45,074 nt of DNA. It comes from Vulcanimicrobiaceae bacterium. GTDB lineage: Bacteria; Vulcanimicrobiota; Vulcanimicrobiia; Vulcanimicrobiales; Vulcanimicrobiaceae. The stretch lies in assembly GCA_046262595.1 (NCBI GenBank), contig JBHEMM010000019.1, positions 1-45,074 on the forward strand. Reading direction: 5' to 3'. A program made the position numbers and the translations under genes. Position 1 is the stretch's first letter. Every line of letters starts with the position of its first letter. Of this stretch, positions 30,399-35,775 are shown piece by piece. The notes below the pieces were generated by a model. The model saw only the letters and a list, made by a program, of their open reading frames with translations. It searched no databases and was not told where the DNA came from.

Positions 30399-30407
30399 CG
30401 GGGCCGC

Positions 30408-30462
30408 TTGATGACTCCTTGATGGCAGAGGAGCGTGATTTTTGATGACATTTTTATGGCCG
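30408..30462. promoter_or_regulatory. Tandem operator-like repeats TTGATGAC-N6-ATGGC upstream of the WYL gene
   Basis: TTGATGACtccttgATGGC (30408-30426) and TTGATGACatttttATGGC (30442-30460); pseudo-palindromic TGACW-N6-TGGCM. Confidence 0.55.
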
Positions 30463-30479
30463 GGGACCGGCGCATAGTG

Positions 30480-30491
30480 CCACAATTGTGG
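30480..30491. promoter_or_regulatory. Perfect palindrome CCACAATTGTGG overlapping a putative extended -10 (TGcCACAAT) of a leaderless WYL transcript
   Basis: 12-bp palindrome ending just before ATG 30493; no Shine-Dalgarno. Confidence 0.5.
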
Positions 30492-30492
30492 T

Positions 30493-31488
30493 ATGGAACG
30501 CACGAACGAGCCGAAGATTGTGTTGCTGGTCCGGCTGCTCAACGCGATTGACGAAGGCCGCTTTTCGTTCGAAGAACTTAAAGACCGCATTGCCGAGGGA
30601 GAACACAAGCCGAGCACGCGCAGCCTGCGCCGCTATTTGGCAGTGCTTGCGGACGCGGGCTTCCCGTGGTACTTCGATCGCGCCACCAACACGTACCGGT
30701 TTACCGAAGGTTACAGCCTCAAACGCCTGGAGCTCAACAGCAGCGAACTGTTCGGTCTGGTCGCGCTGCGCGCCATCAGCGCCAGTTTGAAGGGCGCCAT
30801 CGGCACGTACGTTGACGAAGTGACCGCCAAGATCGTTGGCTCGAGCGGCAGCGGGGCGAAGGAACGGTTGCAGGCGCCCTCGCCGGTCGCGTTCCGCCTG
30901 AGCGAGATCGCGCTGGATGTGCAGGGAGAACAGATATTCAGCCGTCTCTCCTCGGCCGAACGCAGTTCGCGCAGTGTGCGGTTCCAATACCAGGACAAAG
31001 AAGGCAATACGTCCACGCGCACGGCCGACCCCTACGGCTTTGTCGTGGGCGGCGGACGCGTGTACTGCGTGGCGCACGATCGCGACCGGCGCGGCATGCG
31101 GACGTTCGCGGTCGACAACATGACCGACCTCACGGTGCTGGCGCAGACGTTTACCAAGCCGCAAAATTTCAGCGTCGAAGACTTTGCCTCGAGCTCGATC
31201 AGCGGCGTGCTGCACAGTTCGCAAACCGCGGAAGTGCGCGTGCGGTTCGCACCGCGCGTCGCGAAGGCGGCAATCGCCGCGCGCGTCGTGGCGGATCGCG
31301 CCGTGAGCCGATCGGCCGACGGTTCGGTCGAGATAACGTACACCGTCGCGGACGTTGACGAACTGACGCGCTGGGTTTTGGGTTGGGGCGCACAGGCCGA
31401 GATCGTGGCGCCGGCGGAAGCACGCGCCAAAGTCCAGATGCTCATCTCCGAGATCGCGACGAAGTACGAACTTCCGGTCTCGCGCTAA
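30493..31488 (+). CDS. HTH-WYL-WCX transcriptional regulator (YafY/PafB/DriD-like) with a non-canonical WYL motif
   Basis: N-terminal wHTH (STRSLRRYLAVL...GFP), WYL core VRFQY...RTADPYG...VYCVAHD...RTFAVDNM, WCX end WVLGWG...EIVAP. Confidence 0.9.
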   Translation: MERTNEPKIVLLVRLLNAIDEGRFSFEELKDRIAEGEHKPSTRSLRRYLAVLADAGFPWYFDRATNTYRFTEGYSLKRLELNSSELFGLVALRAISASLKGAIGTYVDEVTAKIVGSSGSGAKERLQAPSPVAFRLSEIALDVQGEQIFSRLSSAERSSRSVRFQYQDKEGNTSTRTADPYGFVVGGGRVYCVAHDRDRRGMRTFAVDNMTDLTVLAQTFTKPQNFSVEDFASSSISGVLHSSQTAEVRVRFAPRVAKAAIAARVVADRAVSRSADGSVEITYTVADVDELTRWVLGWGAQAEIVAPAEARAKVQMLISEIATKYELPVSR

Positions 31489-31500
31489 ACGGACATACAT

Positions 31501-31535
31501 CAAAAACCCCGATGACTTTTACGTCACCGGGGTTT
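31501..31535 (-). terminator. Intrinsic terminator of ncRNA copy 1 (may also weakly terminate the convergent WYL gene)
   Basis: 13-bp stem AAACCCCGGUGAC/GUCAUCGGGGUUU running into U5; the single A-C mismatch on + is a G.U pair on -. Confidence 0.8.
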
Positions 31536-31697
31536 GAACGTATTCGCCGGTTTGCGCCTGTCAGAATTCCGGTAAAAGAAATCGACTGACGCCGCCGTAC
31601 GTTTGGCCGGCTCACTCGGGACCGCGGCTTTCACCGCTGTCCGTCAACATGTTCCGGTTGCGGCTTTTACGTTTGCCGCCCTTCAATCGCTTGAAGT
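31501..31697 (-). ncRNA. Putative structured ncRNA, copy 1 (~197 nt, family not recognised)
   Basis: Own promoter and terminator; collinear conserved blocks and compensatory stems shared with copy 2; no conserved ORF. Confidence 0.75.
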
Positions 31698-31703
31698 TCT
31701 TGC

Positions 31704-31732
31704 ATGGTATCATCCGGAAAATCACTTTGCAA
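31704..31732 (-). promoter_or_regulatory. Sigma70-type promoter of ncRNA copy 1
   Basis: TTGCAA (31732-31727), 17-bp spacer, TG-a-TACCAT (-10 at 31709-31704). Confidence 0.75.
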
Positions 31733-31852
31733 GAGCGCGATGCAGCGACTCACAGCATATGCACAAAAACTTTCAGTTGTTCGCCGTTTGTGCACTCGGC
31801 GGAGCGCGCTCCTCAATTCGCGATTACTCACACGTTGTGCACGCAGGTGCAT

Positions 31853-31890
31853 AAAAAAACAGAAGCCCCGAATGTTCATCCGGAGCTTCC
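31853..31890 (-). terminator. Intrinsic terminator of ncRNA copy 2
   Basis: Stem GGAAGCUCCGGAU/AUUCGGGGCUUCU followed by G-U7; three A-C mismatches on + are G.U pairs on -. Confidence 0.85.
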
Positions 31891-32053
31891 GGCGTATGTC
31901 TTTCTCGCTCGTGCCTGTTTGGCTCCGGTGAAGAAACCCTACTGACCACCGCTTGAAAGTCCGGCCGTTTCACTCGTATCGCCGTCATGCGGCTGCATCG
32001 TCAACATGGCCCGGCCGCGACGACACGTTCGCCGCACTTCGTTTCATCGAAGT
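31853..32053 (-). ncRNA. Putative structured ncRNA, copy 2 (~201 nt, paralog of copy 1)
   Basis: Same block order as copy 1: ACUUC hairpin, GCGGC hairpin, CCGG, CAUGUUGACG, CGAGUGA, GUCAGU, ACCGGA, ACAGGCRC, AUACG, terminator. Confidence 0.75.
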
Positions 32054-32059
32054 GTCTGA

Positions 32060-32088
32060 ATGGTAGCACCGTACAAATGTCGTAGCAA
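32060..32088 (-). promoter_or_regulatory. Sigma70-type promoter of ncRNA copy 2
   Basis: TTGCTA (32088-32083), 17-bp spacer, TG-c-TACCAT (-10 at 32065-32060). Confidence 0.75.
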
Positions 32089-32140
32089 GTAGCCGGGTGC
32101 CGTTTCCACCGCATTTCCACAAGAAAGACGCGTTATTCAC

Positions 32141-32572
32141 ATGGTTATACACCTGCTTGCTCTGTTGCTCGCTCAAAGCATGTTCGCCGGTCTTCCTGTC
32201 GACGGTATCCGATGCGATTCGATGGAAGGTGCGCTCGAACACATCCACGCGCATTTGAAAATTACGGATGGCGGCCGCGCGCTGGAAATCCCCTCGGGCA
32301 TCGGGATTCCGCAGGGCGGCCAGTGCCTGTACTGGCTGCATACGCATTCGTCCGACGGCCTCGTGCACATCGAGTCGCCGCTGAAGAAGACGTTTAGGCT
32401 GGGGCAATTCTTCGACATCTGGGGGGAGCCGCTGAGCCGCACGCAGGCCGCAGGAGCGCATGCGTCGCGAGGCCACGCGCTGCGCGTGACCGTCAACGGA
32501 AAAGCCTGGAAAGGCGACCCGCGCACCATTCCGTTACGTGACCATGAGGAGATCGTCATCAACGGCTCATAA
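32141..32572 (+). CDS. Secreted hypothetical protein with His-rich putative metal-binding motifs
   Basis: Signal peptide, HIHAHL, IP-x-GIG, CLYWLHTH-x2-DG-x2-HIES, LGQFFDIWG. Confidence 0.75.
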   Translation: MVIHLLALLLAQSMFAGLPVDGIRCDSMEGALEHIHAHLKITDGGRALEIPSGIGIPQGGQCLYWLHTHSSDGLVHIESPLKKTFRLGQFFDIWGEPLSRTQAAGAHASRGHALRVTVNGKAWKGDPRTIPLRDHEEIVINGS

Positions 32573-32581
32573 GGTATCCGC

Positions 32582-34126
32582 ATGGCAACTACCGCCGCCG
32601 CCATCGAACTCGACGGCAAACACCTCACCCTGCAGGCGATCCGCGCCATCGCTCAAGACGGCGCAACCGTCGCGATCACCGCCGGCGCGCGAGCACGCGT
32701 TGCCGCGGCGCGCGCGCTGGTCGACGAAAAATTCGGTTTAGGCGATGCGATTTACGGCGTGACGACCGGCTTCGGCCGCTTGGCGAACATTCGGGTCGAA
32801 CCGCACGATGCAAACCTCCTCCAGCTCAACCTCGTGCGCAGCCACGCCGCCGGCACGGGCGAGCCGCTGAGCATTCCGCATGTCCGCGCCGCGGGCGTCC
32901 TGCGCGCTAGTTCGCTGGCGGCCGGTCACTCGGGGATCCGCGAGAGCACCCTCGATCTGCTCGTCGGGCTGCTCAACCGGGGCGTCACGCCCGTGGTTCC
33001 GCGCCAGGGATCCGTCGGCGCCAGCGGCGATCTGGCGCCCCTGGCGCACATGACGTTGACGCTTATCGGCGAGGGCGAAGCATTTTATCAAAGTGAGCGC
33101 ATGCCGAGCGCCGTTGCGCTGCAGCGCGCGGGCCTGCAGCCGATCGAGCTGGGTGCAAAAGAAGGACTGGCGCTCGTAAACGGTACTGAGGTGATGACCG
33201 GCATCGCCGCCTTGTGCCAGCTGCGCGCCGAACGCCTTTTGGCGAGCGCCGACGTGATCGGCGCCATGTCGCTCGAAGCGTTTTTAGGAACGGACCGCGT
33301 GTTCGACCGGCGCATCAACGCACTGCGTCCGCATCCGGGTCAAGCACGCGTCGCCGACAATCTTCGCGCATTGTTGAGCGGTTCTCAAATTATCGAATCG
33401 CACCGCGAATGCGGACGCGTGCAAGATCCGTATTCGTACCGCTGCATTCCCGTGGTGCATGGCACCGTGCGCGACGCCGCGGCGCATGCGCGCCGCGTCA
33501 TCGAAATTGAGGCAATCTCCGTTACCGATAACCCGCTGGTTTTCCCGGAAGACGGCGAATTTTTGAGCGGCGGCAACTTCCACGGCCAGCCCATCGCGCT
33601 CGCATCCGATCTGTTGAAAATTGCGCTTGCGGAACTGGCCGGTATCAGCGAACGGCGTCTCTATCTGCTGCTCAATGCGGAAGAGCGCGGCCTGCCGCTG
33701 TTTCTCACGGGACGCTCGGGCTTGCAGTCCGGCTTGATGATCGTGCAGTACACCTCGGCGGCACTCGTCTCGGAAAATAAAGGCCTGGCATGGCCGAACA
33801 GCGTCGATTCGATTCCCACCTCGGCCGGCCAAGAGGATCATGTGAGCATGGGCATGACGGCGGCGGTTCATTTGGACCGCGTGCTGGAGAACGTCGAAGG
33901 CTCGTTGGCCTGCGAGCTGCTCGGTGCGCTCGTTGCGACGGATTTTCGGCGTCCGCTCAAATCGGGCGCAGGAACGCAGGCCGCGTTCGACGTGGCGCGC
34001 GAACGCATTGCGCCCTGGAGCGACGACCGCATTCCGGCCCCGGATATCGAAGCCGCGCGAATGCTCATTCGTTCCGGCGCGATCGCACAGGCCGCGGAGT
34101 CGGCGATCGGAACGGAGCTCGTATGA
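32582..34126 (+). CDS. hutH: Histidine ammonia-lyase
   Basis: [19 protein letters not shown] (MIO-forming ASG), [31 protein letters not shown]. Confidence 0.96.
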
Positions 34127-35775
34127 TTGCCAAACCTCGCGCGGTGCGCGCGCCGCACGGCGCGCATCTGAGCTGCCAAGGCTGGCCGCAAGAAGCGGCG
34201 ATGCGCATGCTGATGAACAATTTGGATCCGGACGTTGCCGAACGTCCCGACGACTTGGTCGTGTACGGCGGTAACGGCCGCGCAGCACGCTCGTGGGACG
34301 CGTATGAGGCGATTATACGCACGCTGCGGCGCTTGCAGAACGACGAGACGCTGATCGTGCAAAGCGGCAAGCCGGTTGCAGTGTGGAAGACGCACGCGCG
34401 CGCGCCGCGCGTGCTCATCGCCAATTCGAATCTGGTGCCGAAATGGGCGGACTGGTCGATCTTCCGCGAACTCGAAGCGAACGGCCTCACGATGTACGGC
34501 CAGATGACGGCGGGATCGTGGATCTACATCGGATCGCAAGGCATCGTGCAGGGAACGTACGAGACGTTTGCGGAGCTCGCGCGCCAGCACTACGGCGGCT
34601 CGCTCAAAGGACGCGTTGCGCTCACTGCCGGTTGCGGCGGCATGGGCGGCGCGCAGCCGCTGGCGATCACGATGAACGAAGGCATTTGCCTGATCGTGGA
34701 CGTCGATCGCTCGCGTCTGGACCGCCGCGTTGAATTGCGTTATCTGGATAAAGTCGCGGACTCGCGCGAAGAAGCGCTGCGCGAAGTGCACGCCGCTCGC
34801 CGCGAAGGGCGTTCCGTTTCGATCGGATATGAAGGCAACGCCGGCGATGAGTTCTTGGCGCTCCATGCCGCCGGATTGCGTCCTGATGCCGTGACGGATC
34901 AAACCTCGTCGCACGACATGCTCAACGGCTACGTTCCCGCCGGCATGAGCCTGCAAGAGTGCGCCGCGCTGCGCGCGCAAGAGCCGGAGGAGTACGAGCG
35001 CCGCGCGTATGAGACGGTCGCGCGCCACGTGCGCGGCATGCTGGCATTTCTTAAAGACGGTGCGGTCGTTTTCGACTACGGCAACAATATTCGCGCGATG
35101 GCTCAGCGTGCCGGCGTGCAGAACGCGTTCGATTTCCCCGGCTTCGTACCCGCTTTCATCCGTCCGCTCTTTTGCAAAGGCAGCGGTCCGTTCCGCTTTG
35201 CAGCGCTCTCGGGCCATCCCCAGGACATCGCGCGGTGCGACCGCGAGCTGCTTGAGCTATTCCCGGACGACACGCACTTGCAACGTTGGATCACCATGGC
35301 GCAGGAACGCATCGCTTTCCAAGGACTGCCGGCGCGCATCTGCTGGCTCGGCTACGGCGACCGCGCGAAGGCGGGATTGCGTTTCAACGAACTGGTGCGC
35401 TCGGGCGAGCTCCGCGCGCCGATCGTCATCGGACGCGACCATCTGGACACGGGAAGCGTCGCATCGCCGTACCGCGAAACCGAAGCGATGAAAGACGGCA
35501 GCGACGCGATCGCGGATTGGCCGCTGCTCAACGCGCTGCTCAACACCGCTGCAGGTGCCCATTGGGTTTCGATCCACCACGGCGGGGGCGTCGGCATCGG
35601 CTACAGCACGCACGCCGGAATGGTGGTCGTTGCCGACGGGTCGGAAGATGCGCGCGAACGCTTGGAGTGCGTGCTTGCAACGGATTGCGGCATGGGCGTG
35701 GTTCGTCATGCCGATGCCGGCTATGAGATCGCAGTCGAAACGGCGGACGAAAAACACATCGACTGGCGGCTGTGA
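34123..35775 (+). CDS. hutU: Urocanate hydratase
   Basis: MNNLDP-x-[44 protein letters not shown]. Confidence 0.97.

Follow-up and report, generated by a model that had tools for sequence, protein, structure and literature searches.

Sibling small RNAs (sRNAs) are known from several bacterial regulatory systems, such as RsmX/Y/Z under GacA, Qrr1-5 under LuxO, CrcZ/CrcY under CbrB and, in M. tuberculosis, Mcr7 under PhoP. These sRNAs are encoded by paralogous genes, sometimes in tandem, and each gene has its own promoter, an intrinsic terminator and an upstream activator site that is nearly confined to the sRNA genes. SAM-I (S-box) and other kink-turn riboswitches are built differently, as a kink-turn arm and a pseudoknot between a loop and a downstream strand, followed by an intrinsic terminator. 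Apart from these, orphan non-coding RNAs such as the raiA motif are stand-alone, about 200 nt long, multi-helix, lineage-restricted and backed by covariation (in the part of PMC10861870 consulted). Features reminiscent of each kind occur at the locus described here, which lies in a 45,074-nt stretch of a Vulcanimicrobiaceae bacterium (assembly GCA_046262595.1, contig JBHEMM010000019.1, positions 1 to 45,074; hereafter the window). Its minus strand carries two tandem paralogous small-RNA genes, copy 1 (~31502-31699, ~198 nt) and copy 2 (~31853-32055, ~203 nt, with the 3' end at the U run), which appear to be sibling genes of an undescribed, independently transcribed and highly structured small RNA of ~200 nt. 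Window coordinates refer to the minus strand unless the plus strand is named, while helix names (P1-P8) and RNA type names (A, B and C) are labels of this analysis.

Tandem RNA genes and their distribution

Read on the minus strand, the two copies are 77% identical across 281 aligned columns, and each unit is composed of a conserved promoter, a body of ~165 nt and a strong intrinsic terminator. When folds were compared with those of dinucleotide shuffles, copy 1 reached a z of -4.90, with none of 200 shuffles equally good, and copy 2 a z of -3.13, with two of 200. A BLAST search in 40 relatives yielded 14 copies in all, from which a covariance model (R1) was built; it scores copy 2 at 146.5 bits (31888-32055) and copy 1 at 144.7 bits (31534-31699). 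Matches to R1 were obtained in 92 of the 151 genomes and 44 of the 78 genera of the family Baltobacteraceae (Eremiobacterota), five of these 92 genomes being flagged as unpublished. One copy is present in 50 of the positive genomes, two in 37 and three in five. In a sample of the phylum, 52 of 71 Baltobacteraceae genomes were matched and none of the 79 genomes of 20 other families.

A scan with an exact pattern, limited to one genome per species, returned 37 loci, comprising, by title, 28 from metagenome-assembled genomes (MAGs) of Baltobacteraceae, Eremiobacterota or Vulcanimicrobiota, six from bacteria without a lineage label and three others. The locus in Mycoplana is not matched by R1 and was discarded as a chance hit. 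MAG contigs titled Acidiferrales (L055, 347-511, plus strand) and Acidoferrum (Acidobacteriota; L069, 377-551, minus strand) match R1 at 85 and 64 bits, respectively. Since their neighbourhoods resemble those of Baltobacteraceae, with L069 having the order of RNA and then OPT transporter gene seen in genus g80, they are probably mis-binned Eremiobacterota DNA, horizontal transfer being the other conceivable route.

No family of Rfam 15 matched anywhere in the window at the gathering threshold. At E <=10, the region 31300-32300 gave only BTnc005 (19 bits against 174.8) and CC3552 (15.2 against 50), and at E <=0.01 there was no match for the relatives or the sister RNA types described below. The literature consulted on RNAs of Eremiobacterota (WPS-2), RNA motifs of hutH and sRNAs of WYL-domain regulators, supplements aside, holds no description of this RNA. 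It is thus an undescribed family of a known kind, that of the stand-alone structured bacterial sRNA, and we hold with high confidence that copies 1 and 2 represent a real family of such genes. Eremiobacterota is an abundant phylum of soil and peat of which hardly any members have been cultured. The literature covered by our search describes no regulatory RNA from it, and the present family would be the first structured RNA family specific to this lineage.

Secondary structure of the RNA

The fold was evaluated on an alignment (A5) for which 89 sources were given to R1, duplicate loci and one locus from an unpublished genome being excluded; it yielded 116 matches and 81 distinct sequences. The fold model contains 45 pairs, and 89.0% of its cells are paired, a count that is biased in the model's favour, as are all those for nested helices, by the fitting of A5 to the nested part of the model. 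An earlier sequence-only reading of the two window copies had proposed a shared fold with compensatory changes, and this is borne out by the relatives, where 29 of the 45 pairs have changes at both positions. The fold as a whole has a covariation score of 0.236 against 0.136 in shuffled alignments, none of 500 scoring as high, and slid partners reach at most 0.082. In 5' to 3' order the model places P1, P2, a long P3 arm, an AAC linker, P8 around P6/P7, a GAGUGA linker and the pseudoknot strand; the P3 arm in turn is divided into P3, a CAU/GUG stem, a predicted kink-turn (GUU-GA opposite GA), P4 and P5.

The P1, P2 and P5 helices of the sequence-only reading hold on the 81 distinct relatives. 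P1 (ACUUCG/CGAAGU at 32036-32053 in copy 2, from the covariation alignment; CUUCAA/UUGAAG at 31681-31696 in copy 1) is paired in 98.8% of cells. Its closing pair is GC in 70 sequences and AU in seven, and its sequence is near-invariant (CG in 78/80, UA in 79/80 and CG in 80/80). P2 follows at 32017-32035 in copy 2 and, as GCGGC/GCCGC, at 31660-31679 in copy 1; one of its pairs is AU in 44 sequences and GC in 28. The P5 hairpin varies and reads GCGGU-GAAA-GCCGC in copy 1 (31624-31637), GCCG-CAUGA-CGGC in copy 2 (31981-31993) and GUCG...CGGC in most others.

The P3 arm required revision. Its CCGG does pair, as had been proposed, but the partner is the proximal CCGG directly after CGAGUGA and not the distal one. 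All six pairs of this P3 change on both sides, and in most copies the helix is longer (GAUCGG/CCGAUC). It extends past a mismatch into the CAU/GUG stem, which covaries and reads ACG/CGU in two copies. In copy 2 the arm spans 31963-32016, with P3 formed by 32012-32016 and 31963-31967 and the CAU/GUG stem by 32006-32008 and 31971-31973. In copy 1 it spans 31607-31657, and P3 (CCGG/CCGG) joins 31654-31657 with 31607-31610, the CAU/GUG stem 31649-31651 with 31613-31615 and P4 (GGAC/GUCC) 31639-31642 with 31619-31622. The P4 of the sequence-only reading, UUGAC/GUCAG, fared differently: together with the distal P3 it scores 0.128, a value at least equalled by 433 of 500 shuffles (0.136), and none of its five pairs changes on both sides. 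As these two helices do no better than shuffles, the three-way junction that this P4 was thought to close is unsupported too. The earlier drawing of copy 2 had in addition used G 32035 in both P1 and P2, and U 32023 in both P2 and the pseudoknot.

The GUCAG strand is instead the 5' strand of a separate hairpin, P6/P7, in which GUCAGU pairs with ACAGGC (P6) and the helix runs on into P7. It lies at 31913-31946 in copy 2 and 31554-31592 in copy 1, within a 3' domain of 31900-31959 and 31548-31597, respectively. The loop of P7 is UUCACC in the window copies and a GNRA-type tetraloop in some genera. The hairpin is enclosed by a helix that the sequence-only reading had missed, P8, which pairs the bases after the AAC linker with those before GAGUGAAUACG. 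Examples from RNAduplex are CGUCGA/UCGAUG, CGCCGG/CCGGUG, CGGCAGU/ACUGCCG and, in copy 2, CUUUC/GAAAG (31955-31959 with 31900-31904); in copy 1 the helix is weak and short (CGG/CCG, 31595-31597 with 31548-31550). For P8, a MAFFT alignment prepared without structure fitting was analysed on anchored columns, using 69 of 80 unique 3' domains after 11 near-identical rows had been dropped. The covariation score was 0.343, which none of 500 shuffles reached (0.137), and double-sided changes were seen in 63 cells, where shuffles gave 27.1. Only 60.6% of the P8 cells are paired in this alignment because strands of other lengths are misaligned, and for the same reason RNAalifold misses P8 on plain MAFFT alignments. 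A longest-run script gave 4.99 against 4.57 +/- 0.10 in partner shuffles; it is crude and noisy, skipped nine of 80 sequences and placed some registers wrongly.

Long-range pseudoknot

The loop of P2 (consensus ACGUAU) pairs over 5-7 bp with AUACGU just before the terminator. This pairing had been proposed for both window copies, and its positions proved exact: AACGUA (31673-31668) pairs with UACGUU (31542-31537) in copy 1 and CGUGU (32027-32023) with AUACG (31897-31893) in copy 2. It is also supported by the deeper alignment, and the counts are free of model fitting as the pseudoknot is not encoded in R1. Across the 81 sequences, 85.8% of the cells are paired, and 23 change on both sides against 7.1 in shuffles (none of 500 as high). 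The covariation score is 0.162 against 0.090 in shuffles and at most 0.058 in slid controls. The three central pairs are near-constant, and the evidence comes from the outer pairs, which change from UA to GC, AU and CG. The pseudoknot ends 3-6 nt before the terminator.

Predicted kink-turn

The segments UUGAC and CGAGUGA had been regarded as invariant unpaired motifs. They are better read, on sequence grounds, as probably the two strands of a kink-turn within the P3 arm. AUGUUGAC and CCGAGUG suit such a motif, with CAU/GUG as the canonical stem, a three-nucleotide GUU bulge and then tandem G.A and A.G pairs, as in Kt-7, U4 small nuclear RNA (snRNA) and box C/D RNAs. All four signature bases (G54, A55, G82 and A83) occur together in 67 of the 80 unique copies, while the three bulge bases and the 3b/3n positions vary. 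The predicted core is GUU-GA-C (32000-32005) opposite C-GA (31974-31976) in copy 2 and GUU-GA-C (31643-31648) opposite C-GA (31616-31618) in copy 1. The strand without the bulge, CCGAG, is the one found in U4 snRNA, and the bulged one, AUGUUGA, is similar to the C box, RUGAUGA. Unlike those motifs, 3b.3n is mostly C.C here, and another internal loop occupies the site in 13 of the 80 copies.

Diverged sister RNAs

Five complete or near-complete Baltobacteraceae genomes lack a match to R1 or R2 and still carry the WYL-domain regulator gene that adjoins the RNA genes elsewhere. In one of these (G061), the gap beside the WYL gene bears the same boxes and promoter as the window copies (type A), followed by a different predicted transcript of ~200 nt, termed type B. 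By BLAST, type B was found in eight genomes of two genera (g33 and g52), with one to five tandem copies at the junction of the WYL gene and the hut (histidine utilisation) genes (loci L120-L127, for example L124, 1501-1708, minus strand, and L121, 1577-1773, plus strand). A further type C, with a P1 loop like that of copy 1, starts at ~755 of L121 and ~400 of L123, both on the plus strand. The same boxes precede the RNAs of types B and C, the distance from box to -35 being 11 bp shorter in type B.

Type B also starts with two hairpins, and the loop of its P2, GCGAGAA, pairs with UUCUCGU before the terminator; variants of the pairing are GUGAGAA/UUCUCAC, AUGAGAG/CUCUCGU and GCGAGAA/UUCUCGC. In 14 of 15 copies, one without a 3' domain having been dropped, 98% of the cells pair and four of the seven pairs show changes in both partners, while the slid controls are all at zero. 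As the letters differ from those of type A, this pairing is independent support for the type A pseudoknot. Two sister families with the same tertiary pairing in unrelated letters thus provide a clean test case for the prediction of long-range pseudoknots. R2 gives a single weak match to type B (19.6 bits, in the right place and strand, amid spurious ones), so that homology of types A and B rests mainly on promoter, position, size and architecture. The two types differ at the 5' end.

Since G042 and G061 hold type B in the place of type A, the absence of type A is partly divergence. G077, which also lacks a type A match, has a match to the box array (GTGCAGAAT...TTTCTTGTGGA) at ~3062-3100 of L101 (plus strand), downstream of the small open reading frame (ORF) that is found near the RNA genes elsewhere and on the same strand as this ORF and the WYL gene; judged from its sequence, this site may be another diverged RNA gene. 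G049 and G007 yielded nothing. The proportion of 92 in 151 genomes therefore understates the wider group, as types B and C exist and an absent call means that type A was not found.

Promoter, box array and terminator

Upstream regions were aligned without gaps on the -10 hexamer, which stands at a constant offset in all 79 unique regions. Conservation reaches to about -95, with the -35 and -10 hexamers as the most conserved columns. The consensus reads GTGcATAAc, ~9 nt, tTTcTTGTGGAAAcg.TTGTGAgt, ~14 nt, cTTGCtACGac and TGnTACCAT, the spacer before the last element being 17 nt in all; its core (cTTGCn, 17 nt, TGnTACCAT) is a sigma-70-type promoter consensus. In copy 2 the promoter lies at 32060-32088, with -35 TTGCTA (32083-32088), a 17-nt spacer, TG (32067-32068) and -10 TACCAT (32060-32065), and the 5' end of its RNA was placed from the -10 position to within about 3 nt. 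The promoter of copy 1 (31704-31732) comprises TTGCAA (31727-31732), a 17-nt spacer, TG (31711-31712) and TACCAT (31704-31709).

Further upstream lies an array of GTG boxes, consisting of two TTGTGR boxes 11 bp apart and another ~21 bp beyond them. In copy 2 the array GTGAATAAC ... CTTGTGGAAA.GCGGTGGAAAC covers 32102-32140, with sites at 32106-32123 and 32116-32140, and in copy 1 GCGAACAAC ... TTTGTGCATATGCTGTGAGT covers 31748-31784, with a site at 31750-31767. With up to three mismatches, the box pattern has 20 sites in the window's genome against 21 for a reversed control, and it stands at promoters only in the two RNA genes. Further promoters with the array were sought in this genome and none was convincing, the best two extra sites being in apparent coding regions. 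Across the family, the strict two-box pattern was found at 86 sites, spread over 65 of the 151 genomes, and its control at 19. Response regulators of the OmpR/PhoB type typically have head-to-tail repeats spaced 11 bp apart as their sites, and by analogy the arrangement suggests an activator of that type; the 11-bp direct repeats of the window RNAs (...GCTGTGA...) resemble the sites of PhoP and other members of the class.

A GC-rich hairpin stands directly 3' of the body in 80/80 copies, with a mean stability of -21.7 kcal/mol, and a strict U-tail rule is fulfilled in 69/80. The terminator of copy 2 (31853-31891) has a 14-pair stem (31860-31891) and U7. That of copy 1 (31502-31533, not assigned to a strand) is made of an A-tract, a hairpin and a U-tract and also ends the convergent WYL gene, the coding part of which stops at 31488.

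Genomic neighbourhood

The WYL gene (30493-31488, plus strand) encodes a DriD/PafBC-like regulator with WYL and WCX domains (Pfam E-values of 6.6e-19 and 2.5e-16), the closest solved relatives of which are DriD-type proteins and PafBC; by analogy with these it presumably has a helix-turn-helix. On the promoter side of the RNA cassette lie a conserved 143-aa ORF (32141-32572, plus strand), which has a hydrophobic N-terminus and no Pfam or NCBIfam match, and, directly downstream of it, hutH (32582-34126, plus strand). The longest ORF for hutU (urocanase; 33790-35775, plus strand) overlaps the end of hutH by ~340 nt; its Pfam match begins at residue 119, and the true start is probably near 34140.

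Neighbourhoods were surveyed by tblastn in 41 loci with flanks of 1.5 kb. The WYL-WCX gene lies beyond the RNA terminator in convergent orientation in 33 of the 41, hutH is on the promoter side in 34, and the 143-aa ORF, 55-75% identical, stands between in 30. The WYL gene, the small ORF and hutH are co-directional, and the cassette is placed between the first and the other two on the opposite strand. In L099, which has no cassette, the three genes are directly adjacent with a gap of 34 nt; as they adjoin one another even there, the adjacency of RNA and WYL gene may reflect where the cassette landed and not a functional tie. The start codon of the 143-aa ORF abuts the outermost upstream box of the RNA, so its promoter must overlap the RNA control region. 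Where the WYL gene is missing downstream, unrelated genes stand there instead (a pyrophosphatase or a SpoIIE/GAF protein). Genus g80 has a second copy, flanked on one side by the divergent nadA and on the other, ~80 nt past the terminator, by a same-strand OPT transporter gene. G001 has a third copy (L008, 1536-1701, plus strand) that lies after the WYL gene, shares its strand and is ~2.8 kb away from the tandem pair, which shows that the cassette can sit in either orientation.

The promoter region of the WYL gene (30405-30492, plus strand, and orthologous loci) holds a conserved direct repeat with an 11-bp period, TTTTGAKG.C..TTTGATGG, and the likely -10, TGnCACAAT, is only ~7 nt before the ATG. 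Judged from these sequences, the WYL mRNA would be leaderless and its operator of the same TTG-N-KG type as the RNA boxes. A sigma-54 reading of this promoter (TGGCAC...) was rejected by eye on spacing, and the palindrome CCACAATTGTGG before the WYL start was set aside because it is not conserved in orthologues; it was seen only in the window, L003 having a similar form.

Possible functions

The reading we favour, to which we give about an even chance, is that of a signal-induced, trans-acting structured sRNA. A dedicated DNA-binding activator would switch on both RNA genes through the box array, and the RNA, as a folded particle, would work in trans by binding or titrating a protein. That the RNA is a trans-acting regulator under a dedicated activator is the better founded part and fairly probable; as the next downstream gene is convergent, the main locus offers no target in cis. 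The protein-binding mode is more tentative. It is favoured over antisense pairing because the conserved bases are almost all in helices, the predicted kink-turn and the pseudoknot, with no free seed evident, and the exchangeable distal loops also speak for a folded particle. Hfq and CsrA, both encoded in the genome, are possible partners. Several points weigh against these proposals. The 5' end of the RNA has promoter geometry as its sole ground, and a simple consensus scan finds no sigma-70 promoter-like site here (hexamers 8/12, threshold 9), so that the inference of a promoter rests on conservation. The letters of P1 are nearly constant despite its being a helix, which would also suit opening of a seed for antisense pairing. 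Of the 81 sequences, 22 and 26 lack pairing at the outer positions of the pseudoknot, and in a single-sequence fold UACGUU of copy 1 can instead pair with a second AACGUA (31598-31603). The kink-turn was assigned by a consensus that we take to be the canonical one, and the response-regulator reading of the boxes follows rules that are presumably general. No L7Ae-family protein (PF01248) was matched in the window's genome, which is 89.7% complete; a control search matched seven of 14 reference genomes.

The closest competitor is a set of Hfq-dependent base-pairing sRNAs under the same activator, in which a short conserved stretch, for example the invariant 5' ACUUCG of P1 after opening or GAGUGAA, would pair with mRNAs and the fold would serve mainly for stability. 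This is a possibility of some weight, though a doubtful one, and we consider protein binding somewhat more likely than seed pairing. It would account for the own promoter and intrinsic terminator with its U tail, for the sibling copies, one to three per genome, for P1 letters conserved beyond the need of pairing and for the different 5' ends of types A and B, as expected of siblings with different targets; the genome also encodes Hfq (96 bits). It accords poorly with the enclosure of nearly all conserved bases in covarying helices, kink-turn or pseudoknot, since the alignment shows no evident conserved single-stranded stretch of at least 7 nt and the loop of P7, replaced by GNRA-type tetraloops in some genera, is structural and not a seed.

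A riboswitch-like sensor is unlikely. A metabolite-bound, pseudoknotted domain would modulate its own terminator, and read-through would extend in antisense into the convergent WYL gene or, where the RNA stands at the second locus, transcribe the OPT gene. The build is aptamer-like, with many helices, a predicted kink-turn arm and a pseudoknot ending close to the terminator; the RNA and its terminator lie ~80 nt upstream of a same-strand OPT gene in genus g80 and L069, and a convergent WYL regulator lies beyond the terminator in most loci surveyed. In Listeria, a B12 riboswitch reportedly controls AspocR, an antisense RNA to a regulator gene. Against such a sensor, the tandem copies are each preceded by a conserved promoter and box array, unrelated genes take the place of the WYL gene where it is missing downstream, the terminator hairpins are very stable, and inspection of a few copies by eye showed no consistent antiterminator pairing. 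Nor does the RNA stand in a 5' leader at the main locus, a same-strand OPT gene being present only in the second locus type.

An equally improbable tie is one to the WYL regulator, which could drive the RNA promoters or bind the RNA, or a single-stranded part of it, through its WYL domain as effector or decoy. An orthologue is adjacent in 33 of the 41 loci, and its promoter bears an 11-bp direct repeat like the RNA boxes; according to the part of PMC10853764 consulted, control of adjacent genes and binding to single-stranded nucleic acid are common among WYL regulators, and the DriD site is ATACGAC-N7-GTCGTAT. The RNA promoters hold only the TACGAC half of a DriD-like site, beside the -35, and a palindrome of this type was rejected for them as there is no consistent second half. 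Furthermore, the co-directional order of WYL gene, small ORF and hutH even without the cassette offers a simpler cause of the adjacency, extra RNA copies elsewhere keep the boxes with no WYL gene nearby, and G049 has the WYL orthologue without an RNA being found. Slightly more remote still is a cassette in which a sensor RNA is coupled to the WYL regulator, either as its effector or decoy or as a riboswitch sRNA that silences it by antisense read-through. If true, the former would be the first case of a dedicated structured RNA serving a WYL transcription factor as effector or decoy, and either form of sensor would link a signal to the hut cluster that holds the cassette.

Catalysis, by self-cleavage or otherwise, had been raised in the sequence-only reading, which saw a hint of a catalytic core in the invariant unpaired motifs, and a compact pseudoknotted fold with invariant junction bases speaks for it. 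It is highly improbable, as no Rfam ribozyme family (hammerhead, twister, pistol, hatchet, HDV-like or others) matches even at E <=10, the supposed core bases are explained by the predicted kink-turn and helices, and the setting is that of a gene from promoter to terminator and not of a repeat or retroelement. 6S RNA was also considered and rejected, the ends being unpaired with each other and RF00013 having no match in the window or the genome.

Comparison with known systems

Among riboswitches, the resemblance to SAM-I is one of build. Unlike SAM-I, the window RNA has no Rfam match, has its own promoter and has no regulated gene downstream at the main locus; its predicted kink-turn is placed in the P3 arm and not in the P2 hairpin, the loop of which forms the pseudoknot. 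A kink-turn ribonucleoprotein of the L7Ae/YbxF type would differ in its protein, as the window's genome is without an L7Ae-family match. In comparison with the raiA motif RNA (as presented in the part of PMC10861870 consulted), the window RNA has another fold, belongs to the lineage Baltobacteraceae, occurs in several copies and has an activator-type promoter.

The sibling-sRNA systems are alike in gene organisation, while no relation to them in sequence or Rfam family was seen. Unlike RsmX/Y/Z, the window RNA contains a single conserved GGA, which belongs to the 3' strand of P7, and is therefore not a sponge of CsrA/RsmA of the CsrB/RsmZ type; it is also far more structured than seed sRNAs of the Qrr type, with a pseudoknot, a predicted kink-turn and 10 helices. 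We know of no signalling pathway in Eremiobacterota that ends in sRNA genes. The module of promoter and activator site, common to at least three diverged RNA types and present in one to three copies per genome (up to five for type B), points to such a pathway, as in Gac/Rsm or LuxO/Qrr.

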